Shown piece by piece: positions 13,358 to 63,756 of a DNA stretch of 64,000 nt. Position 1 is the stretch's first letter. Each line of letters begins with the position of its first letter. This DNA comes from Methanotrichaceae archaeon (lineage in GTDB: Archaea > Halobacteriota > Methanosarcinia > Methanotrichales > Methanotrichaceae). The notes below the pieces were generated by a model. It worked only from the letters and a program-made list of their open reading frames with translations. It made no database searches and was not told the DNA's origin. The position numbers and the translations under genes are program-made. The stretch is from contig CAWDLW010000020.1 in the NCBI GenBank assembly GCA_963803145.1, positions 96,001 through 160,000 of the forward strand, given 5' to 3'.

Positions 13358-13630
13358 CGCATCTGCTCCGGAGCGTTGCTTACAAGGTATATGCGGATGT
13401 TTTATTTTGGCTTTGCAGATCTAGAACAGACTGGGGCAATCCCACCAAATCCGGTTGGGTCAGTCAGCCTGAAGTTGATCTGCACCTCGAAGCTACATCA
13501 TTCTCTATTCTATAAGTGTTCTAATCCTTTTTATAAGTGATGTTCGAGATTACATATGCTGTGATTATGCTGCTGCCATATCAGTCTCAATTCCTAGTTA
13601 CCTTATTCAATTCCTCAGCGTATTCATCCA

Positions 13631-39127: not shown

Positions 39128-40249
39128 CTATCTTGGAATCACATTGATCTGGCCCTTCATGCCCATGTAGTCATGAAGCACACAGAGATATTTGTAAGTC
39201 CCAGGCGTACTGAAGGTGAGGTTATAGCTTTTCGGTCCTGGTAGCGGCACCATTGTGCCCCAGATAAGGCCCGAGTTGAAATAGCCAGCACCATTGTATA
39301 CCTTACTTCCGTTTGGCATCAGCACAATGGGGTTCAGTACTAATTTCGGCGGCCCTCTTTGCTGTGGCTCAGCAATGACAAGCTCAGGCTCTTTGCCTCC
39401 CGATAGGAAGGTGACCGTATGAGGAGTCTCCACACTTCCGCGGGTCCATTCTACTGAATCACCGACATGTATCGTCAGATCTGTTGGGGCAAATCGCATC
39501 CAATCAATGAGGCCATTGCCATAGCCTATCTTAACATCGTAAACAGTCGTCCCATTCTGCCCGGGATGACTGGATACATTTCCAGCTTTCGGCTCTGCCA
39601 ACAGAGCTGCCTCCATATCCGATGCAAGAAGCTTTGCAGCATCTGCATCTATCTGCTCTTGGGTCTTGGGATAAGGCGTGCCTGCTGGCTGCACTGTAAC
39701 GTTTCCCTTCATCATGCCGTGGAACGCACAGAAGTATTCAAACGTTCCAGGCTTGGTAAACGTCAGGTTGTACTCTCTGGGGAAGCCCGTCTCTATGTCC
39801 AGTTGACCTGAACCTGTCAGCATAGTCCCATTATAGGTTTGCCCTCCCTGTGGAAGTATTACAGTTGGATTGAATAACAAACGCTGGCTGCTATTATTCT
39901 CAGGGATTATAATACCTGGAACCTGTTTTCCTGTACCTAGGAAGGTTACAGTATGCGGCTCAGACGCTTTGAGCTTCCATGCAATCTTATCCCCGACATT
40001 GACGGTTATATTTTCAGGATAAAATCGCATAAATTGCCATGCACCTGATGGTCCGTACTCCTGGGGTTCAATTGCTGCCTCCCCGCCGACCAGCACCGTC
40101 CAGGTTACAGGGCCAGCCTGAGCAGCCTTCCCTTGCTGAACCTGCGCATAGGCTGCACCAGTCAAAACAACAAGTGCCATCGTACAGAAAGCAAGGAGCA
40201 TTATGATCTCCAAGCGGTATAGAATACCCTTACTTTGTCTTTTTGACAT
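39128..40249 (-). CDS. Secreted two-domain cupredoxin (blue copper) protein
   Basis: Two PHTVTF ... C-x2-H-xn-M sets (CAFHGMM and CVLHDYMGM). Confidence 0.88.
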   Translation of the reverse strand: MSKRQSKGILYRLEIIMLLAFCTMALVVLTGAAYAQVQQGKAAQAGPVTWTVLVGGEAAIEPQEYGPSGAWQFMRFYPENITVNVGDKIAWKLKASEPHTVTFLGTGKQVPGIIIPENNSSQRLLFNPTVILPQGGQTYNGTMLTGSGQLDIETGFPREYNLTFTKPGTFEYFCAFHGMMKGNVTVQPAGTPYPKTQEQIDADAAKLLASDMEAALLAEPKAGNVSSHPGQNGTTVYDVKIGYGNGLIDWMRFAPTDLTIHVGDSVEWTRGSVETPHTVTFLSGGKEPELVIAEPQQRGPPKLVLNPIVLMPNGSKVYNGAGYFNSGLIWGTMVPLPGPKSYNLTFSTPGTYKYLCVLHDYMGMKGQINVIPR

Positions 40250-41412: not shown

Positions 41413-42588
41413 TTAGGTTTGCTTTCTCTTCAGAAGCCTCGCCTGGAAGCCGTGATACTTGGCAAAGCCCTCTGCATCGCGCTGGCTCAGCGTTTGGGAG
41501 TCGAAGGAGACCATATCCTGCGCATAGAGTGCATCAGGCGATTTTCTGCCTACAGGTGTCGCGCATCCGGCATAAAGCTTCATCCTGACTGAGCCGTTCA
41601 CACGCTTCTGGCTATGGTCGATGAAGGCGTTCAGGTCTGGAAACAGAGGATCGTCAACAAGCCCCATGTAAGCCAGCTCTGACCAAGTCTCATCAACGAC
41701 TGACTTGAACCTGAGCTCCTGCCTGGAGAGTACCAGATGCTCTAGGTCATTGTGAGCTGTGAGAAGTATCGTCGCAGCGGGATGCTCATAATTCTCGCGA
41801 GCCTTTAGGCCAAGAACTCTATCCTCGACCATATCTGTCCTTCCGATGCCGTGCTCGCCCCCGATCTGATTGAGCTTTGTTATCAGTTCGATTCCATCCA
41901 TCTTCGCCCCGTCGATGGAGACTGGCACGCCCTTCTCAAATCCTATCTCGATAACCAGGGCAGGCTTATTTGCATCAGGCTTCTTTGACCAGCTATAGAT
42001 CTCCTCAGGCGGCTCAAAGTAGGGATCCTCAAGCCTTCCGCCCTCAATGGACCTGGACCAGAGGTTTTCATCTATCGACCATGGCTTGTCTTTCGTGACA
42101 GGCACATCTATTCCGTGCTCCCGCGCATAATTGATCTCCCATTCGCGCGCGAGATCAAGCTCTCTCATAGGCGCGATTACGCGACAGCTTGTGCACCTGA
42201 AGACCTCTTCGAACCTTAGCTGATCGTTTCCGCGCCCTGTGCAGCCATGCGCCAATGCATTTATTCCTTCCTTCTCGGCGATCTCGACGGCCTTTGAGGC
42301 TATCAGCGGCCTGGCTATTGCAGTTCCCAGAACATAACCCTCGTAAGATCCATTTGCCTTAATCAATGGAAAGAGGTAATTCTCGACGAACTCTTTCCTG
42401 GCATCTATAACATAATGCTTATCGGCAAGCTGCTTCGCGCGGTTGTTTCCCCGTTCAATATCAGCTCCGGGCTGGCCGACATCAACAAGAACAGTTATGA
42501 CTTTATCAAATCCATAACGCTCCCTCAGAAGCGGTATGCAGACGGATGTATCGAGGCCTCCCGAATAGGCCAATACAACTTCACTCAA
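41413..42588 (-). CDS. argG: Argininosuccinate synthase
   Basis: [56 protein letters not shown]; likely TTG start at 42588. Confidence 0.97.
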
Positions 42589-42689
42589 ACGTATATCACC
42601 GCTCCCGTACAATAAGCCATGCAAATTTAATGTTATCTCTTCTTTTGGGCGATAACTCTATAACTGCCGCGGAAAAAAATGATGCCATA

Positions 42690-43790
42690 ATGACGCAGCT
42701 AATTTCGACTGCCGCTCTTAACGTAGACTTTGACCCTGATAGCCATAGGCTCAATGCCCATGGAGCTCTGGCTCTAATGGTCCAGCCAGTCCTAAACAAG
42801 ATCAACCAGAGGCTATCTGAGGAAAAGCCTGCCATGGTCAGATTGAAGGATATAGTTGCCACTACCTGGCTTCCGCCTATACCTAGCGGCCCTTTCAAGA
42901 GGTTGGTACTCAATGAGGCTCGATTTGCTATCGGGAGGCCTGTCCCTCAAACAGTCTCCATTGAGGCGACACGCCTTTGCGGCTGCGCATGCGATCACTG
43001 TCTGATCAAAGATGGCGTGGGAGAGCTAAGCAAAGAGCAGATTCTTGGCGTTATAGATGAGGCACTAGATCTGGGAGCCTGTATCATAACCTTTACAGAA
43101 GGCGACCCGCTGCTGCGTGAGGATATCTTTGAGATCATCAAGCATGTCGATCCTGAGAAGGCTGTTGTTAACCTCTTTACTCCTGGTCTCGAAATGACTA
43201 TCGAGAAGGCAGTGAAACTCAAGGAGGCCGGCCTTTACAACCTAATAATAGGAGTATATAGTCCGGATGCTGCGGAGCATGATAAGATAAGGGGTCTGGA
43301 TGGAGCTTATGCAAAGGCAATCGATGCAATAAAGATGGCTCTTGATGCAGACCTGATGGTGACGATGTCGACCCACGTGAAAGCTGGCGATGTGGAAAAG
43401 ATACCCTTGCTTTACAAGCTTGCATCCGACCTGGGTGTTCATGAACTATCGGTCTGGGAGGGCATACCAAAATCTCCTGAGGAGCAGCTCACCCAGATAG
43501 AGCGCGAGAAGATAATTGACATCTACAGGAGGATTAATTCCACACCTGGCGGGCCTCGTATCTTCGCTAGTACCTACTTTGAGGGCCAGATGCTGGGCTG
43601 CATGGCCGGGCGGAGATGGATGCATGTAGGTGTAGACGGCAATGTCAGAGCATGCCCTTACCTGAATGAAAGCTATGGAAATATTCTAGATAGCCCTCTC
43701 AAGGATATTTGGAAAGCCTTGAGGGACTGCGGAGAGTTCAATAATTTCACCTGCAGCTGTCCAGCTCAAAATCTATTTGGCCAGGTTTGA
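42690..43790 (+). CDS. Radical SAM protein with SPASM/twitch C-terminal domain
   Basis: CGCACDHC (CxxxCxxC), FTEGDPLLR, GCMAGRR...GNVRACPY...GNI; likely start at 42690. Confidence 0.88.
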   Translation: MTQLISTAALNVDFDPDSHRLNAHGALALMVQPVLNKINQRLSEEKPAMVRLKDIVATTWLPPIPSGPFKRLVLNEARFAIGRPVPQTVSIEATRLCGCACDHCLIKDGVGELSKEQILGVIDEALDLGACIITFTEGDPLLREDIFEIIKHVDPEKAVVNLFTPGLEMTIEKAVKLKEAGLYNLIIGVYSPDAAEHDKIRGLDGAYAKAIDAIKMALDADLMVTMSTHVKAGDVEKIPLLYKLASDLGVHELSVWEGIPKSPEEQLTQIEREKIIDIYRRINSTPGGPRIFASTYFEGQMLGCMAGRRWMHVGVDGNVRACPYLNESYGNILDSPLKDIWKALRDCGEFNNFTCSCPAQNLFGQV

Positions 43791-43976: not shown

Positions 43977-44615
43977 ATGGGATTGATCAGCAGCCTAAGA
44001 GAAAGCTTTGGAGGCTGGATAAATAAAATATTTAAAAAGAAGAGGGCAAAGATAGGAATATATGGCCCGCCAAATGCTGGCAAAACCACCCTTGCCAATA
44101 GGATAGTCAAGGACTGGAGCGACGGCGAGATCATGGGTATAGTCTCGCCGATACCACATGAGACGCGCAGGGCTATTAGACGCGAAGGTGTATTGATAAA
44201 ATCTAATGGCTCAAGCATAGAGCTCGATATAGTCGATACCCCAGGAATGGCTACTAAGATCGACTTTAAGGAGTTCATGGCCCATGGCCTAGCTGAACCT
44301 GAAGCAAAAAAGAGGGCCAAAGAGGCAACAGAGGGCGTAATCGAAGCCATCAAATGGTTGGATGACCTAGACGGTGTGCTTCTAGTAATGGATTCCACTG
44401 AGGACCCCTACACACAGGTCAATGTCACAGTTATAGGAAATATGGAGGCAAGAGGGCTACCGCTTCTCATCGTTGCAAATAAGAATGACCTACCGGATGC
44501 ATCGCCTTCCAGGATAAAATCGGCCTTCCCGCAGCATCCCGTAGTGCAGATCTCGGCTCTTGACGGATCGAATATCGATGGACTTTATCAGGCGATAGCA
44601 GCTCATTTCGGGTGA
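43977..44615 (+). CDS. oapA: Era-like archaeal GTPase (OapA-type)
   Basis: [27 protein letters not shown]; followed by DUF2073 and Zn-ribbon genes. Confidence 0.88.
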
Positions 44616-44619
44616 TTTT

Positions 44620-44979
44620 ATGAGAGAATTACAGATGGATCTGATCTCCGGAGAAAAGCTGGAGAGGATGACCTCCATGGAGAAGATTAGGCTTATCCTT
44701 GATAAGGTCAAAACCGGCAGGATAGTTGTTCTGGAGAGCGGGCTCACCCCTGATGAGGAGGTGCGCTTGATTGAGATGACAATGAGCGAGATCCGCTTAG
44801 ATGAGTTCTCGGGAATAGAGATTGAAAGCTATCCTGTCAAGAGGGAGAACTCCTTCTTCAACAAGCTTCTTGGGAAAAACGTGAAGGGCAGGATGACAGT
44901 GATAGGGCCTGCAAACCAGCTAAGGACTATTGAAAAGAATCAGTATCAGATCAGCACTAAGTTATCTGTAGGAGATTAG
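44620..44979 (+). CDS. oapB: DUF2073 family protein (OapB-type)
   Basis: MEKIRLILD.V..G.IVVLE.GLTPDEE..LIE.TM, FSGIEIESYP, TVIGPAN. Confidence 0.88.
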   Translation: MRELQMDLISGEKLERMTSMEKIRLILDKVKTGRIVVLESGLTPDEEVRLIEMTMSEIRLDEFSGIEIESYPVKRENSFFNKLLGKNVKGRMTVIGPANQLRTIEKNQYQISTKLSVGD

Positions 44980-45579
44980 ATGCCCCACATATGTACCCGT
45001 TGCAATAATATCTTCGATTCCGGCGAGGACATATTGAGGGGATGTCCTGTCTGCGGCTGGAAGAAGTTCATGTTCGTTAAAAAAGTCCAGCATGAGGGGA
45101 AGCAGCATGCAGAGCAGGTTATAAACAAGTCTATGGGTGTCAGAAGGCCTCCCAAAAGGTCGATTAAAGAGCGATCGGTGGAGGGAGCAGAGGAGAGATC
45201 GGTGGAAGAATCTGTGGAGAACTCAGTGAAAGAGATCAAAGTGGGCACAGGAGAGTTAGCACAATCTGCTCATGAAAGACCACAGTCTTCTCATGAAAGA
45301 TTACAATCTGCTCACGAAAAACCACCAGTAAAACCTGTAGTAAAACCTGTGCGTGCCAAAATTGATGATAAGATTGCCGATACGACTACCCAAGACAAAA
45401 ATACCACACCATCCCCGCAGATAAATGATAAGCTAGAAAGCATAAAAATTACTGCGCCAGGAACATATGAGCTGAATCTGCCATCGCTCTTTGAAAGGGA
45501 CGAGCTGATCATGGCAGTGAAGGAAGGAACTTACTTTATAGATCTATCCTCAGCCTTCAGAAAGGGCAAGAAGGAATGA
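44980..45579 (+). CDS. oapC: Zn-ribbon protein DUF2072 (OapC-type) with low-complexity linker
   Basis: MPHICTRC...GCPVCGWKKF; ESIKI.APGTYELNL; EGTYFIDL. Confidence 0.88.
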   Translation: MPHICTRCNNIFDSGEDILRGCPVCGWKKFMFVKKVQHEGKQHAEQVINKSMGVRRPPKRSIKERSVEGAEERSVEESVENSVKEIKVGTGELAQSAHERPQSSHERLQSAHEKPPVKPVVKPVRAKIDDKIADTTTQDKNTTPSPQINDKLESIKITAPGTYELNLPSLFERDELIMAVKEGTYFIDLSSAFRKGKKE

Positions 45580-45778: not shown

Positions 45779-46186
45779 TTATGCCCCGCCAAATATAGCT
45801 ATTGGAGGAGTATAGACTGTGCTATTTGCCGATATCGCCAGGGGCAGGGTGAAGACAGTGTTCGCCTGGGAGGTGATATTCTGATTCTTTATGGAAAACA
45901 TGGGGGTAATCGTCACTGGAGACGGTCCTGTTATAATTACTGGCGAAGCGGTTGATTCGACTGTAGGCTTTCCAAGGGTACTGAGATCGGAGACCGATGG
46001 AGTCGTATTTTCTCCAAGGTGGGTAGCAGGAACGCTAGCCATGCTTTGAGAGATCACTGGAATAGTTATAGTACCCAGATTATTCTTTCCTAGAGTGCTG
46101 AGATCCAGCACGTTATCTGCGCCAGCTGCAATCAGCACGCCTGCTAGAAGCATCGTGACAACGATGATCGTGAGAGTTACTTTCAT
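45779..46186 (-). CDS. Secreted Thr/Pro/Ser-rich protein
   Basis: Signal peptide; duplicated DLSTLGK motif; GGAGG RBS. Confidence 0.75.
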   Translation of the reverse strand: MKVTLTIIVVTMLLAGVLIAAGADNVLDLSTLGKNNLGTITIPVISQSMASVPATHLGENTTPSVSDLSTLGKPTVESTASPVIITGPSPVTITPMFSIKNQNITSQANTVFTLPLAISANSTVYTPPIAIFGGA

Positions 46187-46597
46187 TATTAACCTCCGTT
46201 CTCCCGGTACATATGCGTACCTTGTTTTTACCCTGGTACCTGTGGTTTAACCATTTATTCCTTTTGCTGATCTATTGAGCATTTGCTGATACTATTGCAG
46301 ATTTAGATAATTCCATAAAATCGCTCGGATAGGATACTTTTCACATCGATAGATGGATAAATCGGAAGCTAACTGCCAATTCTGAAAGCCGTCAAATATA
46401 GTAGCCTGCATTCAGCTTGCTATTCCTCCATGCCTATGGTCTCTGGTCTCCGGGATTCATGCCCCCTTTAGAGATAAAGATCCTCAAGGCAAAGCGTGTG
46501 ACTGAGACGAGGGCTGTATGATTGGCTGTATAATCGATAACTGGAGGGCTATAATTATCAAGCACAAGCTAAAAAAGGAGGGCTATGAAAAGCCCAT

Positions 46598-47215
46598 TTA
46601 GTAATTTGGGGGTACAGATGTTTGCGGTGTCTGTGATGGGACTGTCCCCTGTGTTGATGGCGGCATCTGGCCTGCTGCTGCGACTACTTGGATACTGCTC
46701 AATATACCTTGTGTCACACTCTCAGGATAGGTTGATGTTATATCCACGAGCATCGTGCCAACAGAAACAGGGCCGCATTCACAATTGCTGCTGTCCAGCC
46801 AGTATTGTGCCTGGTAGAATTGTAGCCCAGAGGGTACACCCATGCCGAATGGCAATCCAGAGATAAGGAAGCCATTCTTGCCATCTATAACCTGCTCTTC
46901 AGCTGCAGTAGTGTTAATTCCTCTTAATGCCATACGAAGGGCCGTAATTTCCTCGCTCACCTGCAGAGTGGAATCTGTGAGGTTATTGTACTGTGTTATA
47001 CTTATTGAAGCGCCGGTCATATTATCAGTTACTATCACTATCGGATATATCGTGGCAAAAGGATAAACTGCTGGATTCGGCGTTTGAATCTGGTAGTTCA
47101 TGTTTGTGTTCATATTGAAGGATACCGTATAAGGTCCTGTCTGGCGTGTCTCAGTGGCGGCTAAAGACAGGGAAGACAGCATTAGAACTAATGCTATCGC
47201 AATTATTAATCTCAT
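46598..47215 (-). CDS. Secreted hypothetical protein
   Basis: Signal peptide; GPYTVSF, IDGKNG, YWLDS..CECGPVSVG, STYP. Confidence 0.8.
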   Translation of the reverse strand: MRLIIAIALVLMLSSLSLAATETRQTGPYTVSFNMNTNMNYQIQTPNPAVYPFATIYPIVIVTDNMTGASISITQYNNLTDSTLQVSEEITALRMALRGINTTAAEEQVIDGKNGFLISGLPFGMGVPSGLQFYQAQYWLDSSNCECGPVSVGTMLVDITSTYPESVTQGILSSIQVVAAAGQMPPSTQGTVPSQTPQTSVPPNY

Positions 47216-47217
47216 TT

Positions 47218-48009
47218 TTAATAACCTCCTGTAGATGGATTACCCAATGGTTGACTACTCGTTTGCTGGGCTATTGGCTGAGTATAGCCTGGCTGCTGAT
47301 AGGCGGTCTGCTGACTTGACAGCGGATTATAGGCAGCCACATTGGCAACAACATCGATATCTATAGCGTTGCTCAGCTGGCTGCCTATTGAGAATAGCAG
47401 TATATGTTGCCCTATTGTATCTGCATAGAAACTTATTTGGCTCGATCCCGGGTAGAAATAGTAGTAGTTCTTTATCAGCTGGCCATCTGGACGTATCTCA
47501 TAAAGGTATCCGCTGCCGCCTATGGGAGTGATTGCCAAAATGGTTAAGGATGAACCCTGGGGGACTGTTGCATACTGGGTCCAGCTGGTAGTCCCTTCTA
47601 TCCATAGAGAATTGCCTCCTGTGTACGTAGAATAGGTCTGGTATTGAGAGTATGGCACCGCCTGTGTCTGACCTACAAAATAGAGGCTTGATGGTGCATT
47701 GCCGCTGATTGCATATCTCTGAGGTGCAGTGATATGAGTAATCGGAGCAGCTCCTATGGGCATCCTATAGTACTGAGAATAGTCTATTGAGAAGAATTTT
47801 TGGAATCCGTAGGATTGATTAACGTTAGGATATTGGCCAAAGGGAATGCTTGAGGGATGAGTGCCGATAGGAGAATAGTACGGTCCTGTTACATATACTG
47901 GCCCAGAGCTGAGCCAATCTTGAGGAGATCCTAGATCCCAAAGCTGACTAGAGGCGGATCCCATCAGAAGGCTCAAAAGAAGAGCCAATAGGCATAATTG
48001 CTTTGTCAT
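47218..48009 (-). CDS. Secreted hypothetical protein (paralogue of 17809-18639)
   Basis: Signal peptide from MTKQ; NSLWIEGTTSWTQYATVPQGS; FYADTIGQH. Confidence 0.8.
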   Translation of the reverse strand: MTKQLCLLALLLSLLMGSASSQLWDLGSPQDWLSSGPVYVTGPYYSPIGTHPSSIPFGQYPNVNQSYGFQKFFSIDYSQYYRMPIGAAPITHITAPQRYAISGNAPSSLYFVGQTQAVPYSQYQTYSTYTGGNSLWIEGTTSWTQYATVPQGSSLTILAITPIGGSGYLYEIRPDGQLIKNYYYFYPGSSQISFYADTIGQHILLFSIGSQLSNAIDIDVVANVAAYNPLSSQQTAYQQPGYTQPIAQQTSSQPLGNPSTGGY

Positions 48010-48143
48010 AATCTTTTCACCATAATAAGACATGCTTCAAAAAATTTAAAACTATCTCACATTGCGTACTTTTTAGTTTTTAGTAAAATAGCAGGGGAAT
48101 GCAGAAGCATATCTGCATCCCTTGACGGCACTTACTCAATGCC

Positions 48144-49702: not shown

Positions 49703-51784
49703 TTAAGTAAATGTTTTGCCTGTTGTATTCCCGTTGTCTACGATTACATCACGCAGATTATCCACTTTGCAGCTGAGCTTTACCCACTCCGCAGGAGGAT
49801 CTGATATGATCACGGCGATCATATTCCGCTTGAAATATTTGTCCATCAGCTTTTCCAGATCGAACATGCCCGAGAGATAATCCTCTTGATAGCTTGCATC
49901 GCCGCTTAATATAGCAATCACTGGTTCGCCTTTGAGCTCGGGGAACTGAGTTGTATAGTGCGCTAGTGGGTAGGATAAGTTGAAGGATATCAGGAAGAGT
50001 ATAGATAATATCACCAATGCTCCAAATGGGTTTCTGCGGTTGATGACTACTACGACTAATCCGATAGCTACCAGCAGTATGAGTACAAGTGTTTTATCGA
50101 TCTTATCTACACTTGATAAGTACTCTATCATGCCGATAGACATCTGAGCATGGTCTCCGAAGCCTACAACGCCATTGTTGAATTGTGTGCTGTCTGTGAA
50201 CATGATAACATTGCCAGCTCCATACTTGGTTCCGACTATTACAAGATGCTTATCAAAGAGCGAGTTCATCTTTACTTCATCTGGAAACTCTCGGCTTAAG
50301 AAGAACGGAGCCGTCTCATTACGGAAATGGCCAAAGAAGCTGGGCCTGGTTGTAATCTCAAATAGGGAGCTTCCATTCAGCCTTTCGATGCTGTTGCTAG
50401 TCTCCCACCCAAGGTCACCAGTCATGTATCGGGTAATTATCGGTGGAAATTCTCCATCTTGCGTTATAGACCCACTAGTATCTGTGTATGTATCCTGAAC
50501 ACCCGTTGCCATGAACTTATATCCTATTCTCTCGGCAATCGGATTGAGATTAGTGCACATTCCATAGATATCTGTATGTTCGCTAACTAGGAAGAGGCTG
50601 TTGCCTCTGGCTGTAAAGTTAAGTATAGCATCAACCTCTGACTTCGTGTAAGGTCTGGTCACGCATTTTAGCACAAGTATAGCTTTTTGTCCCCGAGATA
50701 TATTTTCCAAAGCATCGAGTGTGATATCAGGAACCAGAGATGCACTAACAGAACTTACAGCAGGCGCCTTGCTAGGCTTATCTATTATTAGGGTAACATT
50801 ATATAAGCTTGCAAGTATATCAAGCCACCCAAAGTAATTGTTGGTGCCGCTCACAGGATCCTTTTCGTACGTTTTAATGTAATCAGGCCAGGTAGGCTCC
50901 CATTCGCTGTGGGCTTCATCTATTATTATTTTTGGGTCCGATCTGACTGTCATCGGAGTGTAGTACAATAGCCCCAAGAGTAAGAATATTATCAATAGCG
51001 GTGCAGTTATCTTCTTTGATGTAAAAGTGCCCGCCTGTATTTTTTTGATCTTGGCGCCGGGAATCACCAGGCTCACGAGCAGAATGGATGCCAGGGGAAT
51101 AGCCAAAGCCGGCAGATTATCAAGGACGAAATTAGCTGGCGATGGATTATACAGAAAATTCTGCAGGTTAAGGATTGTGAAGATAAAAGGAACAGCAGCC
51201 ACTGCAAATGCAGACTTCACGGTGATCTTTCGATCCTCATCCAGGATTGCCAATAGCACCAACTCTGCGACCAGCAAGGCAACAAAGAACGGCAGAAGAA
51301 GCTTCACATCATCGAGTAGTATAGGCAGTTTGGTCCTGGTATGATAAAGCAGAAGGTAACCTACATCGTTTATCTCATACCTTATTCCAAATAGAGGTGA
51401 TATATCCCTAAGAACTGCGTACAGTCCATTAAGCAGGAGTTTAGTATCCGCAAACTGGAGTACTAAAACGCCTGCAAGGGAGGGAAGGAAAGTCTCAACC
51501 TTGGCATTGATCGCTATCAGACAGAATATCAAGACGACGATCAGAGGAATATAGGTGTTATTGACTAGGCCCTTTACGAAGAAGATGGAGACTGGTATTG
51601 CCAGCGCAAATGCAACCAGGTCACCTTTTCCTGGGGTATGATCTCTGAATGCGACCAGGAGAAGAAGGATGGAGGCCGCTGCCACTATGAATGTGGAGTA
51701 CTCCCAGTAATAAAACGACATTATATAGCTTCCCAAGAGGAGAAGCCCTGTCGCAAATCCGGTTACTTTGGATTCAAAGTCCAT
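49703..51784 (-). CDS. Multi-pass membrane protein with one DUF4350/GIFT (class I GATase-like) domain
   Basis: About 8 N-terminal TMs; IIIDEAHSEWEPT, LVLKCVTRPY..SEVDAILNF...GNSLFLVSEHTD, YGAGNVIMFTDST; 2 further TMs; start overlaps the upstream stop. Confidence 0.7.
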   Translation of the reverse strand: MDFESKVTGFATGLLLLGSYIMSFYYWEYSTFIVAAASILLLLVAFRDHTPGKGDLVAFALAIPVSIFFVKGLVNNTYIPLIVVLIFCLIAINAKVETFLPSLAGVLVLQFADTKLLLNGLYAVLRDISPLFGIRYEINDVGYLLLYHTRTKLPILLDDVKLLLPFFVALLVAELVLLAILDEDRKITVKSAFAVAAVPFIFTILNLQNFLYNPSPANFVLDNLPALAIPLASILLVSLVIPGAKIKKIQAGTFTSKKITAPLLIIFLLLGLLYYTPMTVRSDPKIIIDEAHSEWEPTWPDYIKTYEKDPVSGTNNYFGWLDILASLYNVTLIIDKPSKAPAVSSVSASLVPDITLDALENISRGQKAILVLKCVTRPYTKSEVDAILNFTARGNSLFLVSEHTDIYGMCTNLNPIAERIGYKFMATGVQDTYTDTSGSITQDGEFPPIITRYMTGDLGWETSNSIERLNGSSLFEITTRPSFFGHFRNETAPFFLSREFPDEVKMNSLFDKHLVIVGTKYGAGNVIMFTDSTQFNNGVVGFGDHAQMSIGMIEYLSSVDKIDKTLVLILLVAIGLVVVVINRRNPFGALVILSILFLISFNLSYPLAHYTTQFPELKGEPVIAILSGDASYQEDYLSGMFDLEKLMDKYFKRNMIAVIISDPPAEWVKLSCKVDNLRDVIVDNGNTTGKTFT

Positions 51785-53867
51785 TCTCTTCCCTCCCTCC
51801 AATGGATGTAAGCAGATTTTCAGTGAACTTCTTCAAGTTAGGATCTGGATAGCTAAACACCGGCTCATATTGTACGAAATTCTTGAATATCGTATGGTCA
51901 CCTACCACTACTATCTGTCCTTTCCCGATTTTCTTCACAGCCACGACGGGTGTATTGTTGTAAAGAGCAATTGGCGTTCCACCCATGACCTCAACTGCGG
52001 AATACATAGTGATGTTTCCATTAACGCTATCCATCAGAGGATTCTTTAGCGGTCTGACAGCTATCCTTGTCTCCTTCATGTAAGGCAGATGATAACCCCA
52101 TGTTGTGTAGTTGAAATAGCTGATATCTCCTAGAAGCGTCTCATTCAAAGACATGCCGAAGTTGTTGAGCAATGTGTTCACTGGATGGCCTGATTGGTCT
52201 GCAGAGATATCGGAATGGTATCCATCAAAGACTATCATAGTACCGCCGTTCTCTACGTAATTCAATAGATTTGTCCGCTCCTCTGTGCTGAAGGGATCGG
52301 TTGGGCCCATAGTCACATATGCCTTGTATTTCGATAAATCTTGAGGTACCTCTTTCACAAGAACGGGATTGAATCCATAGTGCTGTGCAAATATGGCGAC
52401 GAAGACATTCTTGTACTGATGTGGATCTCCATAGCCCTCGATGTTTGCATGTCCAACATCAAGCGCAATTACATTTGTCGGCTCCCATGTCACAGGAACG
52501 GCGGCCTGGACCTGAAGCAGAAGAAGAATAAGAGATACTGAAACGATCAAAGGCACTATTGTATATAGGCGTGCTCTGAATATGCCTAAAGCTGCCAGAA
52601 GAGCCAAAGGTACAACGAGCCAGATGTTTCTCAGGACGCTGTTCTCATGGTTGAGATAACTCATGACCTTTCCCAAAAAAACATAGTTGTACATCAAATT
52701 GGGACCGCTCATAGAATCGGAGTTGGCTATTGCCAGTACTCTTCCTTTGCCATAGTTTACAGCTGCGCATATTGGAAGAACTCCAAAGTCCTCATTGCTC
52801 TCAGGCGCAACATCCCCCAAATAGGCATGGTTCTCTGCTGCCCAATCGCCTAGATCGGCCCATGTTGTGTACTTGAGCGCATAAAATATCAGTCCATCGG
52901 ATCTATTAACCCTTAGAGTTGCTCCTGCGGTCTCCTCTGTGCTGTCAAAGCCAGAAAGGCTTGCGAAATGAGGCTCCCAGAGCATGCTATAGTCGAAGTT
53001 AAGGTGAAGCCCAAAGGTTTCCAGTATGGGATTGAGGTCTATATAGCAGTCCATTATGTTTGTATGATCTCCCAGCACAAACAGACCGCCGCCGTTTCTT
53101 ACGAAGTCTGTGATATACTCGATCTCCTGGGGGCTGTACTTCTCCTCAGGGGTTTCCAGTACCAGAATGCTGACGTCTTTTAAAGATTCGGGAGATATTG
53201 TTGTGTTCAGAATAGTAGTCTCATAACCTACTGTATTCAGATATCTGAGAGTGGAATGAGTTATTGTATCGTTCTCAAAGAATGCCGAGTCGAGCTTATG
53301 ATGGTATCCGTCGTATGCGATCTTGCCTGTCTTTATCTGGCCTAATGGATCGATCGGAGATAAGCTGATCAAGAGCAGTATCATCGATACATACAGAGCC
53401 GCTTTTGTTATGGGCTTAACCTGTACCTTGGATGCATCTCCCAGATCGTAGACGCTCGCAACAACAAAGAATGCAAATGTGATCAGAAGGGTTATCCAAG
53501 TATTCAGTGCGAGACCTAAGCCCTCAACCATTGCTATAGGCAGCAAGATAAATGTGGTCTTTAGCAGATGCTCATTCCTGTAGAAGTAATATATTACTGC
53601 TAGCATTAGGAAGATGTAAGGCGTAGGGTTTCTCAATAGAAATGGTATGAAGAACATTATGATGCCGAGTGGCCTAGCCTTCTCGAACCTCTTCCATGAG
53701 AAGAAGATGAGTAGAGATAGCCCTGACACTAGGCTGACAACATACATTGGCGTCATCAGCTTAAAGACGGAATGTATAATCCCTGACTCCCAACATATAA
53801 AGAAAAGAAGAGGTAAGTAGGGAATGTAATCTCTGGCCCTGGCTGGCGCCTTTGATTCGCTGCTCAT
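51774..53867 (-). CDS. Multi-pass membrane protein with two DUF4350/GIFT (class I GATase-like) domains
   Basis: About 6 TMs; IAYDGYHH, P...YS..E...I..FVRNGGGLFVLGDHTN, YGKGRV; TM pair; second domain ALDVGHAN, YVENGGTMIV, GKGQIVVVGD. Confidence 0.75.
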   Translation of the reverse strand: MSSESKAPARARDYIPYLPLLFFICWESGIIHSVFKLMTPMYVVSLVSGLSLLIFFSWKRFEKARPLGIIMFFIPFLLRNPTPYIFLMLAVIYYFYRNEHLLKTTFILLPIAMVEGLGLALNTWITLLITFAFFVVASVYDLGDASKVQVKPITKAALYVSMILLLISLSPIDPLGQIKTGKIAYDGYHHKLDSAFFENDTITHSTLRYLNTVGYETTILNTTISPESLKDVSILVLETPEEKYSPQEIEYITDFVRNGGGLFVLGDHTNIMDCYIDLNPILETFGLHLNFDYSMLWEPHFASLSGFDSTEETAGATLRVNRSDGLIFYALKYTTWADLGDWAAENHAYLGDVAPESNEDFGVLPICAAVNYGKGRVLAIANSDSMSGPNLMYNYVFLGKVMSYLNHENSVLRNIWLVVPLALLAALGIFRARLYTIVPLIVSVSLILLLLQVQAAVPVTWEPTNVIALDVGHANIEGYGDPHQYKNVFVAIFAQHYGFNPVLVKEVPQDLSKYKAYVTMGPTDPFSTEERTNLLNYVENGGTMIVFDGYHSDISADQSGHPVNTLLNNFGMSLNETLLGDISYFNYTTWGYHLPYMKETRIAVRPLKNPLMDSVNGNITMYSAVEVMGGTPIALYNNTPVVAVKKIGKGQIVVVGDHTIFKNFVQYEPVFSYPDPNLKKFTENLLTSIGGREENGL

Positions 53868-53895: not shown

Positions 53896-54651
53896 TTATA
53901 TACGCTCTTTAATCTTCGATGCTAAGCTTGGCAGCTTCTTCCTATAGCCCAGAAGCAGCGCAGCAACGACTATTATCAGTGCACTAGCTCCAATCTTGAA
54001 CATATTGTCTGTGAGCGACATTGCAGCATTGTAGTAGTTGTAATTCGCCCTGAATACGATATCAGTCTCGTTTCCTGTCTTGGCGGCACTCCAGAGTAGG
54101 GCGTCTCTGCCGGAGATAACGACTCTCTTAAAGGGATCTGTTGAGTTTCCAATGGTCACTACTGAGGTGCCTATTTTGGCATCCGCTGGAGGAATAACCA
54201 CAACACTTGCGCCCTGAGGCTCGCCCACATTCACACTTGTATAGAGCGTATTTCTCTCGCCAATCCTTGTCAAAAGCCCATTCCAGGTGAAGGATAGATT
54301 GAACTTATATGGCTTTCCAACCTGGTAGCCGGCGAGAAGCATGGATATGGTCCGCTCACCGCCAGCCTCGTTAACATCGGCATCAATCGTTTGACCCAAT
54401 GAGTCCTCTGCCGTGTAATCCTTCGTCTCTCCACCTCGGAAAGAGAAAGTATAAAGGATGCTCGGCTCCTTGGGTATGATAGTGCTTGACCAGGTGCATC
54501 TGACGCTCCCATCGGCATTTATATCATATATATAGCTATGATCTACAGGATCAAAGGCAATCTTCTGGTGAGATGCTGTATTCTGGGCAGATGCGGAGCC
54601 GAAAGCTGCTAGATATATTAACAGTAGAGAGAGAGTAGCAGCTTTGGCCAT
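53896..54651 (-). CDS. Exported beta-rich protein with C-terminal membrane anchor
   Basis: Start MAKAAT with GGAGG RBS; signal peptide; C-terminal hydrophobic helix followed by YRKK basic tail. Confidence 0.75.
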   Translation of the reverse strand: MAKAATLSLLLIYLAAFGSASAQNTASHQKIAFDPVDHSYIYDINADGSVRCTWSSTIIPKEPSILYTFSFRGGETKDYTAEDSLGQTIDADVNEAGGERTISMLLAGYQVGKPYKFNLSFTWNGLLTRIGERNTLYTSVNVGEPQGASVVVIPPADAKIGTSVVTIGNSTDPFKRVVISGRDALLWSAAKTGNETDIVFRANYNYYNAAMSLTDNMFKIGASALIIVVAALLLGYRKKLPSLASKIKERI

Positions 54652-55004
54652 CTGTAAACCTCCATATTGTAACACAATTAACTCTCCGAATAATCTTATT
54701 ATCATAAGATATCGTATTTCGAACATATATTAAGCTAGCGGTTAATATTTAAGTAAAAATTGAGCTACCGATATCTAATATACACTAAGCATTCTAGTGA
54801 AGTTACTGAGTTACTAACCGTATCTATATCTGTTACAAAAGATAGTACAGGTTTATCTATAAATACGTAGGAACAAAACATTCGTATTGAAAATCTTTAC
54901 CATTGGTTCTGTATTCGGTTATGACCTCATTAGAGCTCGAAAAGTGACCTAATACACAAAAATTTGTCTGTTTAAAAAATATTGGGCGCTAGCGACCTAG
55001 CAGC

Positions 55005-56195
55005 CTAAGAAGATGATGCTGACGTCGGGCAGAGCTTTTCTGACGGGCAACTGCTGCCGGTTGGACATCTTGAGCCTGTTGGGCAGTTATGGCTTGTTAC
55101 CGTCTCCGCTGAGCTTATGCATCTACCGCTGCTTGGGCAACTGCTGGTGCTCGGGCAGTTACGGCTTGTCACACAACCACTATCTGTTGGGCAGACAGCA
55201 TTAGTTGTGCAGCCTGTTCCAGTTGGACAATTACAACTGGTCACACAGCCACCACTTGTCGGGCAAACTGAATTGGTCGTGCAGCCTGTTCCAGTCGGAC
55301 AATCGTCGCTGGTTGTACAGCCACTGCCTGTCGGGCAGCCTTCACCACTTATACAGCCTGTTCCAGTCGGACAATCATCAGTAGTTGCACAGCCACTACC
55401 TGTTGTGCAGCCTTCGCCGCTTATACAGCCTGTTCCTGTCGGACAGTCATCACTGGTCATACAGCCACTACCTGTCGGGCAACCTGCACCACTTATACAG
55501 CCGGTTCCTGTCGGACAATCATCAGTGGTTGCACAGCCACTACCTGTCGGGCAGCCTTCACCACTTATACAGCCTGTTCCAGTCGGACAATCATCGCTGG
55601 TCATACATCCGCTACCAGTTGGACAGCCTTCACCACTTATACAACCGGTTCCTGTTGGACAATCGCTGCTGGTTGCACAGCCACTACCTGTCGTGCAGCC
55701 TGAACCAGTTATACAGCTTGTTCCAGTCGGACATGTGGCCCCTGTTGGGCGGAAAGATGTTGTTAAGCATCCAGAGCATGTCGGACAGAATGAATTGGTC
55801 ACGCAGGTCGTTTCGCTCGGGCATACCGTATTGGTCGAGCAGCCTGAACCTGTTGGGCAAGTTGATCCTGTTGTGCAACCTACACCAGTTGGGCAGCCGC
55901 TACCCGTTGGGCAAACAGACCCTGTTGCACAGCTACAGCCAGTTGAGCAGCCTGCGCCTGTCATACATAGGCCTCCAGTTGGGCAACCAGCGCCTGTTGC
56001 GCACCCGCTGCCAGTCGGACAGGCTGCACTGGTTGTACAACCGCTACCTGTCGGGCAACCTGCACCAGTCGGTGTACAGGCACCAGTCGGGCTATCAACA
56101 CAATTGGCCGTTATAGCCGATGTATCCACAGCTAATGCGTTGCCTGAAAAAATAATCAAAGCTATGGCTACCAAAAATACCGCTACGTACCTCAT
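55005..56195 (-). CDS. Secreted Cys-hexapeptide repeat protein B (about 59 units)
   Basis: Signal peptide MRYVAVF..NALA; central 24-aa units CPTGTG-CISG[EA]G-C[PT]TGSG-C[MAT]T[ST]DD. Confidence 0.88.
   Translation of the reverse strand: MRYVAVFLVAIALIIFSGNALAVDTSAITANCVDSPTGACTPTGAGCPTGSGCTTSAACPTGSGCATGAGCPTGGLCMTGAGCSTGCSCATGSVCPTGSGCPTGVGCTTGSTCPTGSGCSTNTVCPSETTCVTNSFCPTCSGCLTTSFRPTGATCPTGTSCITGSGCTTGSGCATSSDCPTGTGCISGEGCPTGSGCMTSDDCPTGTGCISGEGCPTGSGCATTDDCPTGTGCISGAGCPTGSGCMTSDDCPTGTGCISGEGCTTGSGCATTDDCPTGTGCISGEGCPTGSGCTTSDDCPTGTGCTTNSVCPTSGGCVTSCNCPTGTGCTTNAVCPTDSGCVTSRNCPSTSSCPSSGRCISSAETVTSHNCPTGSRCPTGSSCPSEKLCPTSASSS
55290..55720. repeat. Coding tandem repeat, 72-bp unit, about 5-6 copies
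   Basis: Recurring CCACTTATACAGCCTGTTCC(A/T)GTCGGACAATCATC at 72-bp spacing. Confidence 0.85.
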
Positions 56196-56694
56196 GTTCT
56201 CCTCTCGTGCAATTTTGAGAAAAACATGGGCAGCTTTTATAATAAAGATGTAGGAAAATAGTATACTAACAGCGCGTCATAAGCGGATATACAATGCAAA
56301 GATACGTATGTGTTGTGATCAAAAGCCAAAGAGCAGCATAAACCCATATAAAATATGATTGAATGCTTTGTGATTTCTAGGATATAGTTCATAATACGAT
56401 AATAATATGTAATCCCCATGCCAATCTGCAAAAGGCCTTGAGTCCATAATCATATATCCAAGGGTTTAGGATATTATATTGTAACTTATATTGTAACTCC
56501 ATACGGATATATCTCTAATATTGTAGATATGAACCGAAAATTTTTTACCCATGGACATATAAGTATTTAGGTTAGCTCGGAAGCCGAATATCTCAAAAGG
56601 ATGAGACTGCAGTACTATCTGGGAATTTCTACATGCTTATCAGTTGTGCTGATAGCACATAGAAACTATTAGAATAAATTGTGGTGGTGAAATA

Positions 56695-62277: not shown

Positions 62278-63756
62278 CTAAACTCCGTCTATTGTCTTGT
62301 CCTTCCCAAGCTCTTCATATATCGACCTGAACTGCTCCAGCGCTGTCTCCAGATTCTCCACTATTTCGGCGGCCAGCACCTCAGGCTCTGGAAGGTTATC
62401 TGAATCCTCTAAACTCTCGTCTTTGAGCCAGAAGATGTCCAGGCTGGCTTTATCCCTCTTCATGAGATCTTCGTAGCTAAAAGCCCTGAAGCGCTCAGTC
62501 TCCTGCCTCTGATGCCGATTATCAGGGTTATAGCACTTGATGAAGTCCTGCAGGTCCTCAAGCTTGAGGGGATTGGTCTTGAGTGTAAAGTGCTGATTGG
62601 TCCTCAGGTCGTAGATCCAGAGCTTCTCAGTCCACGGATTTTGGCTGGCAGGCTTACGATCAAAGAATAACACGTTGGCCTTGACACCCTGGGCATAGAA
62701 AACGCCAGTGGGCAGCCGCAGTAGCGTGTGTACATCGCACTCCTGAAGCAGCTTACGCCTTACTGTTTCTCCTGCGCCGCCCTCGAAGAGAACGTTGTCA
62801 GGCACGACTATTGCTGCCCTGCCATTTATCTTGAGCAATGTCTTGATGTGCTGCAGGAAGTTGAGCTGCTTGTTGGAGGTCGTGGCACAGAAATCCTGGC
62901 GGCTGTATGTTATGGTCTCCTTATCGGTTTTACCCTCGCCATTGATGATGGTGATGCTGCTCTTTTTGCCAAATGGCGGATTGGTCAGAACCAGATCTGC
63001 ACGCTCGCCTCGATCTGCGATCAGGGAATCGGCCACATCAATTGGGCTTTCCTCGCCGCCTATGCCGTGGAGGTATAGGTTCATTGCACAGAGGCGGGCG
63101 ACGCTGTCCACGATGTCTGTGCCCTTTAGTGTTTTATTCTTCAGAAAAAGCTTTTGATCTTTATCCAGGGGATTTTGATGCTGATGCTCGACATAGTCGT
63201 AAGCCGCCAGGAGAAAGCCGCCTGTGCCGCATGCCGGATCGTTGATGGTCTCGCCGGGCTTAGGCCGCATAACTTCAACCATAGCCTTGATAAGCGATCT
63301 TGGCGTGAAATATTGCCCAGCTCCACCCTTAACGTCCTCGGCGTTCTTCTCAAGAAGGCCCTCGTAGATTTTGCCCTTCACATCTATATTTAGGCCGACC
63401 CAGGTCTCGCCATCGATAAGCTTAACCAGGCGCCTAAGTTTAGCTGGGTCCTGGATTTTGTTCTGGGATTTCCGGAATATGACGCCCAGCATTCCAGGCT
63501 CTTTGCCCAAAGCTTCAAGAATATGGCGATAATGAGCCTCAAGCTCTGCCCCACCCTTCTTCAGAATGCTTTGCCAATCGAGATCCTGTGGTATTTTCGA
63601 GGGCCTGTTATAGGGAGGGCGGCTCTGCTCATCGGCCATTTTAAGGAACAGCAGGTAGGTTAGCTGTTCCACATAGTCGCCGTAGCTAACGCCATCATCA
63701 CGGAGAACATGGCAGTAGTTCCAAAATCGCTGGACGATGGTGGATTCTTCGGTCAT
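62278..63756 (-). CDS. hsdM: Type I restriction-modification DNA methyltransferase subunit M
   Basis: DYVEQLTYLLFLKM, GAGQYFTPR, DPACGTGGF, TNPPFG, PDNVLFEG. Confidence 0.96.
   Translation of the reverse strand: MTEESTIVQRFWNYCHVLRDDGVSYGDYVEQLTYLLFLKMADEQSRPPYNRPSKIPQDLDWQSILKKGGAELEAHYRHILEALGKEPGMLGVIFRKSQNKIQDPAKLRRLVKLIDGETWVGLNIDVKGKIYEGLLEKNAEDVKGGAGQYFTPRSLIKAMVEVMRPKPGETINDPACGTGGFLLAAYDYVEHQHQNPLDKDQKLFLKNKTLKGTDIVDSVARLCAMNLYLHGIGGEESPIDVADSLIADRGERADLVLTNPPFGKKSSITIINGEGKTDKETITYSRQDFCATTSNKQLNFLQHIKTLLKINGRAAIVVPDNVLFEGGAGETVRRKLLQECDVHTLLRLPTGVFYAQGVKANVLFFDRKPASQNPWTEKLWIYDLRTNQHFTLKTNPLKLEDLQDFIKCYNPDNRHQRQETERFRAFSYEDLMKRDKASLDIFWLKDESLEDSDNLPEPEVLAAEIVENLETALEQFRSIYEELGKDKTIDGV

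Follow-up and report, generated by a model that had tools for sequence, protein, structure and literature searches.

A tandem pair of divergent GIFT-domain membrane proteins in a Methanotrichaceae archaeon, co-inherited with secreted cysteine-repeat proteins

Two adjacent genes, here termed A and B, on the minus strand of a 64,000-nucleotide stretch of a Methanotrichaceae genome (assembly GCA_963803145.1, contig CAWDLW010000020.1, positions 96,001 to 160,000; hereafter the window) encode polytopic membrane proteins in which a bundle of transmembrane (TM) helices is fused to alpha/beta domains of the GIFT type. The two proteins are paralogues with one common architecture and represent the two halves of an ancient gene pair; polar residues at the core of the first GIFT domain (GIFT1) are invariant among distant relatives, and the pair is inherited together with a membrane protein of 276 amino acids (aa) and with secreted proteins consisting of cysteine repeats. 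The explanation that we tentatively prefer is that A and B form an extracytoplasmic hetero-complex with a ligand-binding site in GIFT1, which would serve the secreted proteins, carrying a cysteine at every sixth position, by docking, orienting or maturing them.

Relationship and predicted structure of A and B

A BLASTP comparison aligned A and B over 68 aa around the elbow motif of GIFT1, with 34% identity and an E-value (E) of 2e-8. Comparison of the two family profiles via hhalign extended the relationship to 629 aligned columns, reaching from the TM bundle to the C-terminus (probability 100%, E 2.7e-65; residues 29-697 of A against 95-693 of B, which has extra N-terminal helices), and by these sequence criteria A and B are full-length paralogues, just as an earlier sequence-only reading of the window had described two divergent paralogous membrane proteins. 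The motifs named in that reading are all present in the translations where it placed them, with DGYHH at position 186, GDHTNIMDCYIDLNPI at 266, EETAGATL at 311 and DVGHA at 470 in A, and DEAHS at 295, SEHTDIYGMCTNLNPI at 407 and WETSNSI at 466 in B, the latter three in the numbering of a 699-aa form.

AlphaFold2 models based on the family alignments displayed predicted local distance difference test (pLDDT) values of 87.7 for A and 87.0 for B, and predicted template modelling scores of 0.87 and 0.88, respectively. The model of A consists of helices at 15-169, an alpha/beta domain at 182-405, one long hydrophobic helix at 415-456 and a second alpha/beta domain at 466-688, and that of B of helices at 4-275 with a hairpin insert, an alpha/beta domain at 285-557, helices at 564-581 and 586-611, and a small alpha/beta domain at 623-681. 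Because hhalign pairs this small domain with the beginning of the second domain of A, it is a truncated remnant of GIFT domain 2. The earlier description of a soluble domain sitting between a TM bundle and a TM pair agrees with hydropathy and with the secondary structure of both models, one helix (415-456) standing in the place of the pair in the model of A.

Also correct was the statement that the soluble domains are GIFT/DUF4350 domains with a fold like that of class I glutamine amidotransferases. Protein A matched three Pfam families above their cut-offs, namely PF09822 ABC_transp_aux (69.3 bits, cut-off 34.7), PF23355 IFT52_GIFT (61.3 bits, cut-off 27.2) and PF14258 DUF4350 (53.5 bits, cut-off 30.4), and belongs to the superfamily by profile and predicted fold, while B, revealing only a sub-threshold match to DUF4350 (21.9 bits vs. 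30.4), is placed there via its hhalign relationship to the A family (100%) and the fold of its model. Foldseek matched the model of A to domain 4 of site-1 protease (9csd_A, E 2.8e-8), IFT52 (5fms_A, E 3.6e-8), the middle domains of GH42 and OST48 (6s7t_G, E 1.5e-5), so that the E-values against eukaryotic GIFT domains span 2.8e-8 to 1.5e-5. An exhaustive VIA-align search with the model of B gave Z-scores (Z) of 18.1 for IFT52 (root-mean-square deviation 3.0, 211 residues aligned), 17.0 for site-1 protease and 16.2 for OST48, followed in the lower ranks by Wbp1 (15.9), ThuA-like proteins (13.7) and true amidotransferases (about 8-10). Judged by the models, the GIFT folds of A and B fit well only with non-catalytic GIFT domains, i.e., those of IFT52, site-1 protease and OST48. 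The solved folds closest to B are all eukaryotic (IFT52, 5fms and 5fmr; OST48/Wbp1, 6s7o_G and 6c26_B; site-1 protease domain 4, 8uw8_A), and the GIFT domains of OST48 and site-1 protease face the lumen, which is the topological outside. Unlike A and B, however, IFT52 displays S-E-G or G-E-G and site-1 protease S-D-W at the place of the elbow, without the D-H-T of the family described here (OST48 was not part of those alignments), and none of the eukaryotic proteins carries a fused TM bundle.

The TM bundles, searched alone, had no Pfam match at E <= 10, save a chance-level match of A to DUF6057 (E 1.1), and no match to an NCBIfam family. The Foldseek and VIA-align match lists of the whole models were filled by the GIFT domain and thereby barely probed the bundles, and the best score of the B bundle in the ESM Atlas (0.75) was uninformative. 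Conserved polar residues are almost absent from the bundles, and the bundle residues that are invariant within the families include no Cys, Arg or His.

An ancient tandem pair of wide distribution

Word-based searches uncovered about 60-70 full-length close homologues for each of A and B, those with a name all coming from Methanotrichaceae except for one bin labelled Methanospirareceae; beyond these there is a gap, and then proteins of 755-950 aa with about 17-25% identity appear. A HMMER search with the A-family profile against 1.84 billion cluster representatives (clusters at 50% identity) resulted in 7666 matches at E <= 1e-3, 3238 at E <= 1e-10 and 1608 at E <= 1e-30. The best 150 matches cover, with few exceptions, approximately profile positions 21-684, and most are about 720-1,000 aa long. 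As in A and B, the remote homologues reveal several N-terminal TM segments, the GDHTN motif, hydrophobic segments and a second domain, and Pfam and NCBIfam recognise their GIFT domains alone.

The genes of this family come in pairs. Among 82 loci, comprising 80 species genomes and two further places in the source genome of the window (hmmsearch at E <= 1e-10, open reading frames (ORFs) of at least 250 aa), 76 displayed a co-directional tandem of two family ORFs. Four of the six single loci are cut by a contig end and two, L017 and L057, look truly single; the upstream ORF of L038 is doubtful. Of the two tandem members, gene 1, which lies upstream, is in each case the more divergent. When the B-type proteins of three relatives were scored with hidden Markov models of the two classes, the gene-2 model (151-171 bits) clearly exceeded the gene-1 model (62-78 bits), and the A-type proteins gave ambiguous values (224 vs. 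232, 213 vs. 202 and 216 vs. 190 bits). A FastTree phylogeny of 147 GIFT1 segments, leaving out five gene-1 ORFs without the elbow motif (three truncated by contig ends, the doubtful ORF of L038 and the full-length ORF of L054), united 56 gene-1, six intermediate and nine A-type sequences in one clade (support 0.935) and 61 gene-2, six intermediate and nine B-type sequences in another (support 0.995). Since gene 1 with A is thereby split from gene 2 with B, the duplication is ancient, and on phylogenetic grounds A and B are orthologues of the gene-1 and gene-2 classes and no recent duplicates. Both have the features of the pair, namely a TM bundle, the GIFT1 elbow, two hydrophobic segments, a second domain (truncated in B), the tandem order and a position in the respective clade.

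The gene-1/gene-2 pair is widespread in Bacteria and Archaea. Searches of the literature on DUF4350, GIFT, GldG, PF09822, PF14258, arCOG01314 and PF23355 retrieved no paper on such a polytopic tandem pair. Within the Methanotrichaceae, the canonical pair, as we call it in distinction from A/B, was found in 16 of 101 sampled genomes. The source genome harbours three pairs, i.e., A/B and canonical pairs on contigs C20 (855 and 850 aa) and C43 (866 and 878 aa).

Some minor observations concern these canonical copies. The two pairs of the source genome lie at 4857-7424 and 7508-10060 (plus strand) of locus L088 and at 12251-14851 and 9678-12314 (minus strand) of locus L089, and each adjoins a divergently transcribed gene without known function; these neighbours are related to each other (L088 10223-11209, L089 15068-16483 and, in a further locus, L053 4870-6171). 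Canonical gene-2 homologues in the Methanotrichaceae genomes G017, G067, G100 and G012 each contain one in-frame stop (TAG or TAA), which may indicate pseudogenes or sequencing errors.

The conserved site of GIFT1

Conservation was assessed in 149 diverse representatives, clustered at 50% identity or less and all of the canonical gene-2-like type, and revealed a polar core that is invariant far beyond the close family (Table 1). Both classes retain the G-D-H-T elbow, the helix Asn, Asp292 and an Asp after the last strand; the first-strand E-x-H-S-x-W-E and the K-x-P-T, pHP, S-C and F-S-N-F motifs are restricted to the gene-2 class. Protein B keeps E-x-H-S, K..T, H-T, N and D-S-T and has lost D292, the pHP His, the Cys and R376, the column of the latter holding Asn in this copy and Lys in most of the B family. 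B is thus, by its sequence, a divergent gene-2 member lacking the full invariant set of the canonical gene-2 proteins, and A and B each lack part of that set in a complementary fashion.

Table 1. Conserved GIFT1 positions in 149 representatives and the residues found in A and B
Position (numbering of A)	Representatives	A	B
267	Asp 101, Glu 48 (acidic 149/149)	Asp	Glu
268	His 149/149	His	His
269	Thr 148/149	Thr	Thr
279 (helix Asn)	Asn 149/149	Asn	Asn
292	Asp 145/149	Asp	Thr
376	Arg 149/149	Arg	Asn
382	Asp 149/149	Asn	Asp
383	Ser 149/149	Ser	Ser
384	Thr 148/149	Asp	Thr
298 column (pHP His)	His 147/149	Glu, His two residues further on	none
313 column (S-C Cys)	Cys 133/149	Thr	Asn
First-strand motif, E, H and S residues	138, 132 and 128 of 149	motif absent	motif kept

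The sequence-only reading had regarded a set of His, Asp and Glu motifs shared by A and B as conserved, and the wider alignment separates these into different grades. The H-T of the elbow, the helix Asn and the YG.G.V....DS motif are superfamily-wide; in B, H403 and T404 of the elbow are present in 66/66 close and 3/3 remote homologues. The block [GS]-[DE]-H-T-[ND]...L-N-P is accordingly a real superfamily signature, except for the Cys within it, which is family-specific. The D-x-x-H at the first strand holds in part, being in B a motif of the gene-2 class, the His of which (DEAHS) is retained by 42 of 66 close homologues and replaced by Asn in the other 24, and in A a family-specific D..H of its own. 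The E-T motif is specific to the families, with t-S-C in its place in the canonical proteins. Even the Cys of this S-C is found in only 44 of the 61 gene-2 proteins of the loci set and is therefore too variable for an essential nucleophile. In the second domain of A, D470 is acidic in 143/149 representatives, and the column of H473 contains His in only 60/149.

In the class I amidotransferase fold, the nucleophile elbow is the loop behind the central strand, and the catalytic His and Glu lie in the loop behind the last core strand. In the model of A, strand 182-186 is followed by D186..H189, strand 234-238 by T-P, strand 261-265 by G-D-H-T, strand 287-290 by D292 and strand 375-380 by N-S-D, and in that of B the strands 285-289, 368-373, 396-400 and 524-529 each directly precede the matching motif. 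Since the motifs directly follow beta-strands in both models, the topology of the fold makes the conserved residues very probably neighbours at the classical active-site edge. The conserved polar residues of A and B, located at the elbow and in the last-strand loop of the same alpha/beta fold (Z about 8-10), presumably occupy the sites of the amidotransferase triad. The traits of catalytic class I amidotransferases are missing in both proteins, however: the elbow, at the position of the nucleophile, carries Asp/Glu-His (GDHTN in A, SEHTD in B) and no Cys, there is no match to PF00117, and instead of His-x-Glu, the residues behind the last strand are N-S-D (A) and D-S-T (B).

Topology and association of A and B

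The GIFT domains of A and B are very probably extracytoplasmic. At their C-termini, three relatives bear SdrD_B or CarboxypepD_reg domains, a typical feature of surface proteins, and two of these relatives (P0264 and P0285) have no TM segment beyond the hairpin. In 101/143 representatives, two separate hydrophobic segments lie between the domains (median 47 hydrophobic residues). Charges in the hairpin loop are net positive (Lys and Arg 2.49 vs. Asp and Glu 0.54 over the 149 representatives), a modestly informative measure, and the loop ahead of the last bundle helix of B is rich in Lys.

Complex prediction was performed on residues 150-697 of A and 250-693 of B with an own alignment for each, in three runs with controls. 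The interaction score (ipSAE) amounted to 0.55, 0.51 and 0.53, compared to 0.01, 0.00 and 0.00 for the controls, at least 39% of the contacts agreed between the runs, and the partner pLDDT was at least 80. The verdict was "weak support": the mark applied is reached by 116/157 solved complexes and 2/215 mismatches, and scores at 0.60 or under comprise 18 of those 157 solved complexes and both mismatches that pass. We read the prediction as mild support because the prior for an association is strong, given the tandem order, the overlap of the two genes and the complementary retention of residues, and a heteromer of A and B is plausible.

Neighbouring genes and co-inheritance

The order of 276-aa gene, A and B is kept in all nine related loci (9/9), and in 7/9 of them genes for cysteine-repeat proteins lie beside the triad. 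Among the 101 sampled Methanotrichaceae genomes, A is present in eight, distributed across four of 16 genera, and the 276-aa gene is found in exactly the same eight. Cysteine-repeat proteins occur in those eight genomes, with 1 to 14 matches each, and one weak match, in a 119-aa frame, turned up in genome G019 as the sole further one of the 101. In the largest genus, A, the 276-aa gene and the cysteine-repeat proteins coincide in 3/55 genomes with zero discordant cases. As the genomes are related and not independent, we regard this co-occurrence as a strong lead rather than as a statistic.

Cysteine-repeat ORFs were defined by at least 10% Cys and at least three CPT[GS] units. Seven such ORFs were identified in the source genome, 7/7 with a signal peptide and 0/7 with a C-terminal TM segment; being secreted without such an anchor, these proteins would need something to hold or organise them. 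The two that flank the triad consist of six-residue units each opening with Cys (CPTGxG / CTTCNY / CATNSA), and the DNA of their genes (Table 2) shows tandem periods of 54/108 nucleotides (nt) and 72/144/216 nt. Long plus-strand ORFs lying over these genes, e.g., 55117-56253, are mirror artefacts of the repeats. The partner protein of 276 aa had no match in Pfam (to E <= 10) or NCBIfam.

As a side observation on this partner, the ESM Atlas gave scores of 0.86 for DUF5803 and 0.85 for Ribophorin_I, both below the mark of 0.9 and thus no more than leads; together with the OST48-like GIFT fold, the Ribophorin_I score is a faint echo of accessory subunits of oligosaccharyltransferase. A radical SAM/SPASM gene at 42546-43790 (plus strand), within a few kb of the cysteine-rich cluster and a conceivable maturase of the cysteine-repeat proteins, is not consistently linked to the triad; it lies within 10 kb in loci L001 and L003, was not found in the examined stretch of the other seven loci, and stands beside argG.

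Around the canonical pairs, a giant protein with RHS repeats and DUF6531 is encoded immediately upstream on the same strand in 4/30 loci scanned with Pfam (L019 569-6505, L029 7-6723, L043 3438-8222 and L069 2717-8998, all plus strand), belonging to Planctomycetota and a Binatia bin. In 16/57 canonical loci, an ORF of 550 aa or more lies directly next to the pair on the same strand, a raw count without a background rate. BLAST among 39 ORFs flanking canonical pairs revealed only small, lineage-restricted families, none of them like the 276-aa protein.

Possible function of the pair

In the explanation that we tentatively prefer, A and B would form a membrane-embedded hetero-oligomer, which here probably includes the single-pass protein of 276 aa encoded upstream, and their GIFT domains would face the outside. 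Each GIFT domain would present a conserved polar cluster where amidotransferases hold their catalytic triad, composed of the acidic-His-Thr elbow, the helix Asn, the Asp after the next strand and the D-S-T after the last strand, and in the Methanotrichaceae lineage the complex would dock, orient or mature the secreted, anchorless cysteine-repeat proteins at the cell surface. For the site in this divergent copy we lean towards binding rather than catalysis.

Several points weigh against this explanation. The heteromer, the ligand-binding nature of the cluster and the role of the cysteine-repeat proteins as clients are inferred, and binding, complex and activity all stand at this level; the spatial clustering of the conserved residues, too, is derived from the topology of the predicted fold. 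For the proposed topology, A needs a hairpin at 415-456, where its model has one unbroken helix, and the complex score is only a weak pass, given without an interface. In 2/9 related loci no cysteine-repeat gene lies within 10 kb, and the co-occurrence was counted over kin genomes in 4/16 genera that are not independent of each other. Elsewhere, the neighbourhoods of canonical pairs are mostly variable and most of them are not beside cysteine-repeat proteins, so that the general function of the family cannot be specific for these clients. Finally, enzymes more typically show the degree of polar invariance seen in the canonical gene-2 proteins than docking sites do.

The sequence-only reading had proposed a heterodimeric extracytoplasmic enzyme, of which the outside location has become very probable and the heteromer plausible (tandem in 76/82 loci, gene overlap, weak complex score), while the enzyme itself found no support in our analysis. 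As an alternative to the ligand-binding complex, such an enzyme, in which the His/Asp/Glu/Ser cluster would be the catalytic centre of a hydrolase or transferase, either metal-dependent or of the Ser/His/Asp type, and the substrate a surface polymer, a lipid-linked precursor or the cysteine-repeat proteins, is in our view rather doubtful, although it can draw on at least 11 (near-)invariant polar positions of GIFT1, including His, Asp, Ser, Arg, the second His (147/149) and the Cys (133/149), on motifs at the C-terminal ends of strands, i.e., the active-site place of the enzymes with this fold, and on a fold common to Cys-dependent hydrolases and amidotransferases (Z about 8-10). Yet the top structural matches, at Z 15.9-18.1, are non-catalytic GIFT domains, of which IFT52 and site-1 protease have no D-H-T elbow in the alignments, no enzyme family of Pfam or NCBIfam was matched, the elbow carries Asp/Glu-His and no Cys, and near-invariant residues are lost in both proteins, A and B lacking the pHP His and the canonical Cys, with Asn for D382 in A and Thr for D292 in B; even among the gene-2 proteins from the loci the Cys is confined to 44/61. 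Because A and B have lost several near-invariant residues, an enzymatic role is more attractive for the canonical gene-2 proteins than for this copy. The same losses, being complementary, would fit relaxed non-catalytic paralogues and a passive scaffold, in which the GIFT domains mediate protein contacts only, the polar residues lend stability to the fold or to the contact between A and B, and the whole serves as membrane anchor or envelope spacer. Every high-scoring solved relative is indeed a scaffolding domain (IFT52, OST48, site-1 protease/SPRING), and the homologous domain of GH42 serves for trimerisation, according to its Pfam name and PMC5898192. We nevertheless consider a mere scaffold unlikely, as the D-H-T elbow, kept by this family in 149/149 representatives, is not conserved in the scaffolding homologues, a set of His, Asn, Asp, Ser and Arg that stays invariant from phylum to phylum would be unusual for fold stabilisation alone, and the strict co-inheritance with one secreted family points to a specific partner.

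Least probable, in our estimation, is an accessory part or permease of a transport system after the manner of GldG and the GldA/GldF ABC transporter, with the GIFT domains as outer part of an export machine, the TM bundles as channel and an energising partner encoded elsewhere, exporting cysteine-repeat or large surface proteins or a polymer. The ABC_transp_aux match of A (69.3 bits), a weak match to GldG (32.2 bits), the secretion or membrane remodelling proposed for the related arCOG01314 (PMC5898192), and the adjacent large ORFs (16/57) and upstream RHS giants (4/30) of canonical loci would be in line with it. However, no conserved ATPase or ABC permease accompanies the pair, with one ABC2_membrane_4 gene among 87 scanned neighbours and none in the cluster of the window, the bundles are almost devoid of conserved polar residues, the GldG score is far below its cut-off of 389.85, and since the cysteine-repeat proteins carry ordinary signal peptides, Sec export would suffice for them.

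A bolder idea, which we consider as unlikely as the mere scaffold, is that the gene-1/gene-2 pair represents a new, ancient extracytoplasmic machine with a catalytic centre in GIFT1 (His, Asp, Ser, Arg and mostly Cys) on an amidotransferase-like scaffold, processing or attaching large repetitive surface proteins, such as the RHS giants in Planctomycetota and the cysteine-ladder rods in Methanotrichaceae. If true, this would be a new maturation or sorting system for surface proteins, comparable in role to sortases and exosortases, and the copy in the window would be a specialised derivative without the Cys, acting on thiol-rich clients.

Apart from its function, the family is a large branch of the GIFT superfamily, with at least 1608 representatives, in which an ancient, obligate-looking pair of paralogues is fused to membrane bundles and holds a strictly invariant polar site. 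A search of the literature found no biochemical function for the widespread GIFT/DUF4350 domains, and the co-inherited cysteine-ladder proteins give the pair family its first testable client, as the invariant polar cluster gives it its first testable site. Methanothrix-type methanogens are relevant to methane emission and to the formation of granules, and for them the findings point to a surface structure of accessory nature that only a minority (8/101 sampled genomes) possesses. Sheath assembly, which came into consideration because the close homologues are from Methanotrichaceae and the sheath machinery has no assigned proteins, was rejected as main role: with A in only 8/101 and the canonical pair in 16/101 genomes of the family, both are accessory genes, which makes a core role in the sheath unlikely. 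Work on archaeal sheaths describes their assembly proteins as unknown, with gene context giving no hint (PMC11576556).

Comparison with known systems

The accessory protein GldG of the gliding ABC transporter of Flavobacterium (ABC_transp_aux, PF09822; TIGR03521) likewise holds GIFT-type domains outside the membrane on TM segments. It has single N- and C-terminal anchors and works with GldA/GldF. In contrast, A and B possess a fused bundle of 7-10 helices and a hairpin between two domains, form a pair of two paralogues and have no adjacent ABC genes; the TIGR03521 match of A covers residues 498-549 only, and B has no match. GldG above the cut-off was detected in none of 14 control genomes.

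Archaeal ectodomain proteins of arCOG01314/DUF4350, which have no known function, have been predicted to assemble into surface complexes, homo- or heteromeric, in the vicinity of secreted or S-layer-type proteins (Makarova et al. 2015, PMC5898192, section 3.2). They have a signal peptide and one C-terminal TM segment, and their operons also encode a vWA protein and a MoxR-type (COG0714) AAA+ ATPase (PMC5898192). Unlike this module, A and B are polytopic and paired, and no vWA or AAA+ domain is encoded in the cluster or its flanks. As regards ThuA-like proteins, parts of one report call ThuAB a dehydrogenase and give ThuA no separate role, and no enzymatic precedent was gained from them (PMC8121099).

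A functional analogy exists to the exosortases and archaeosortases with their PEP-CTERM and PGF-CTERM clients, in that a polytopic protein is co-inherited with a multi-copy secreted family. The bundles of A and B, unlike exosortases, have no invariant Cys, Arg or His, and the cysteine-repeat proteins share no C-terminal sorting helix. An identity with exosortase/archaeosortase or GT-C proteins by sequence was rejected, no Pfam or NCBIfam match to them being obtained at E <= 0.01 and none for the bundles alone at E <= 10. By sequence and gene context, A and B are neither GldG nor members of the arCOG01314 module, the catalytic amidotransferases or the exosortases.

Organisation of the locus

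The features of the locus are listed in Table 2. The 276-aa gene, A and B are closely spaced in one operon, with the two cysteine-repeat genes on either side at distances of 278 nt and 443 nt. For B, the ATG start, also used in the database form of the protein, is most likely correct rather than the TTG, and it overlaps the TGA stop of A by 11 nt. The operon is part of a minus-strand run of genes for secreted or membrane proteins, spanning from 56195 to 45779.

Table 2. Features of the A/B locus (positions in the window)
Feature	Positions	Strand	Description
Gene A	51774..53867	-	697 aa; ORF, Pfam DUF4350/IFT52_GIFT/ABC_transp_aux above cut-off, AlphaFold2 model; gene-1 class
A N-terminal TM bundle, aa 1-176	53340..53867	-	Hydropathy; model helices 15-169
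A GIFT domain 1, aa 177-408	52644..53339	-	DGYHH, GDHTN, LNP, EETAGATL, YGKGRV..NSDS; Pfam and model
A elbow motif G266-D-H-T-N270	53058..53072	-	Directly after strand 261-265; translation checked
A hydrophobic stretch of 53 residues, aa 409-461	52485..52643	-	Taken as TM hairpin, R-A-R loop
A GIFT domain 2, aa 462-697	51777..52484	-	DVGHA; ABC_transp_aux match 467-584; model
Gene B	49703..51784	-	693 aa from ATG 51784; alternative TTG 51802 gives 699 aa; gene-2 class
B N-terminal TM bundle, aa 1-281, with small beta-hairpin insert	50942..51784	-	Hydropathy, model
B GIFT domain, aa 282-560	50105..50941	-	DEAHSEWE, SEHTD, LNP, WETSNS, YGAGNV..TDST; VIA-align, Foldseek
B elbow motif S401-E-H-T-D405 (693-aa numbering)	50570..50584	-	Translation checked
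B TM hairpin, aa 561-613, N-R-R-N loop	49946..50104	-	Model helices 564-581 and 586-611; hydropathy
B small C-terminal alpha/beta domain	49706..49945	-	hhalign to start of second domain of A; model 623-681
276-aa partner	53896..54726	-	Signal peptide, beta-rich ectodomain, C-terminal TM; located 28 nt upstream of gene A
Secreted Cys-every-six repeat protein, 396 aa	55005..56195	-	Candidate cargo
Secreted Cys-every-six repeat protein, 371 aa	48144..49259	-	Candidate cargo

Downstream of the second cysteine-repeat gene, three more genes for secreted proteins (135, 205 and 271 aa; 45779-48033, minus strand) have no family match and are kept in locus L001 only, with the 271-aa gene partly present in L007. 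Further away, a small GTPase gene followed by OapB and OapC, members of origin-associated families (PF09846 and PF09845), is located at 43977-45579 (plus strand), and a replication origin may be close. The window also encodes an HsdM methylase of a type I restriction-modification system (62278-63756, minus strand) and a two-domain cupredoxin (39128-40249, minus strand).

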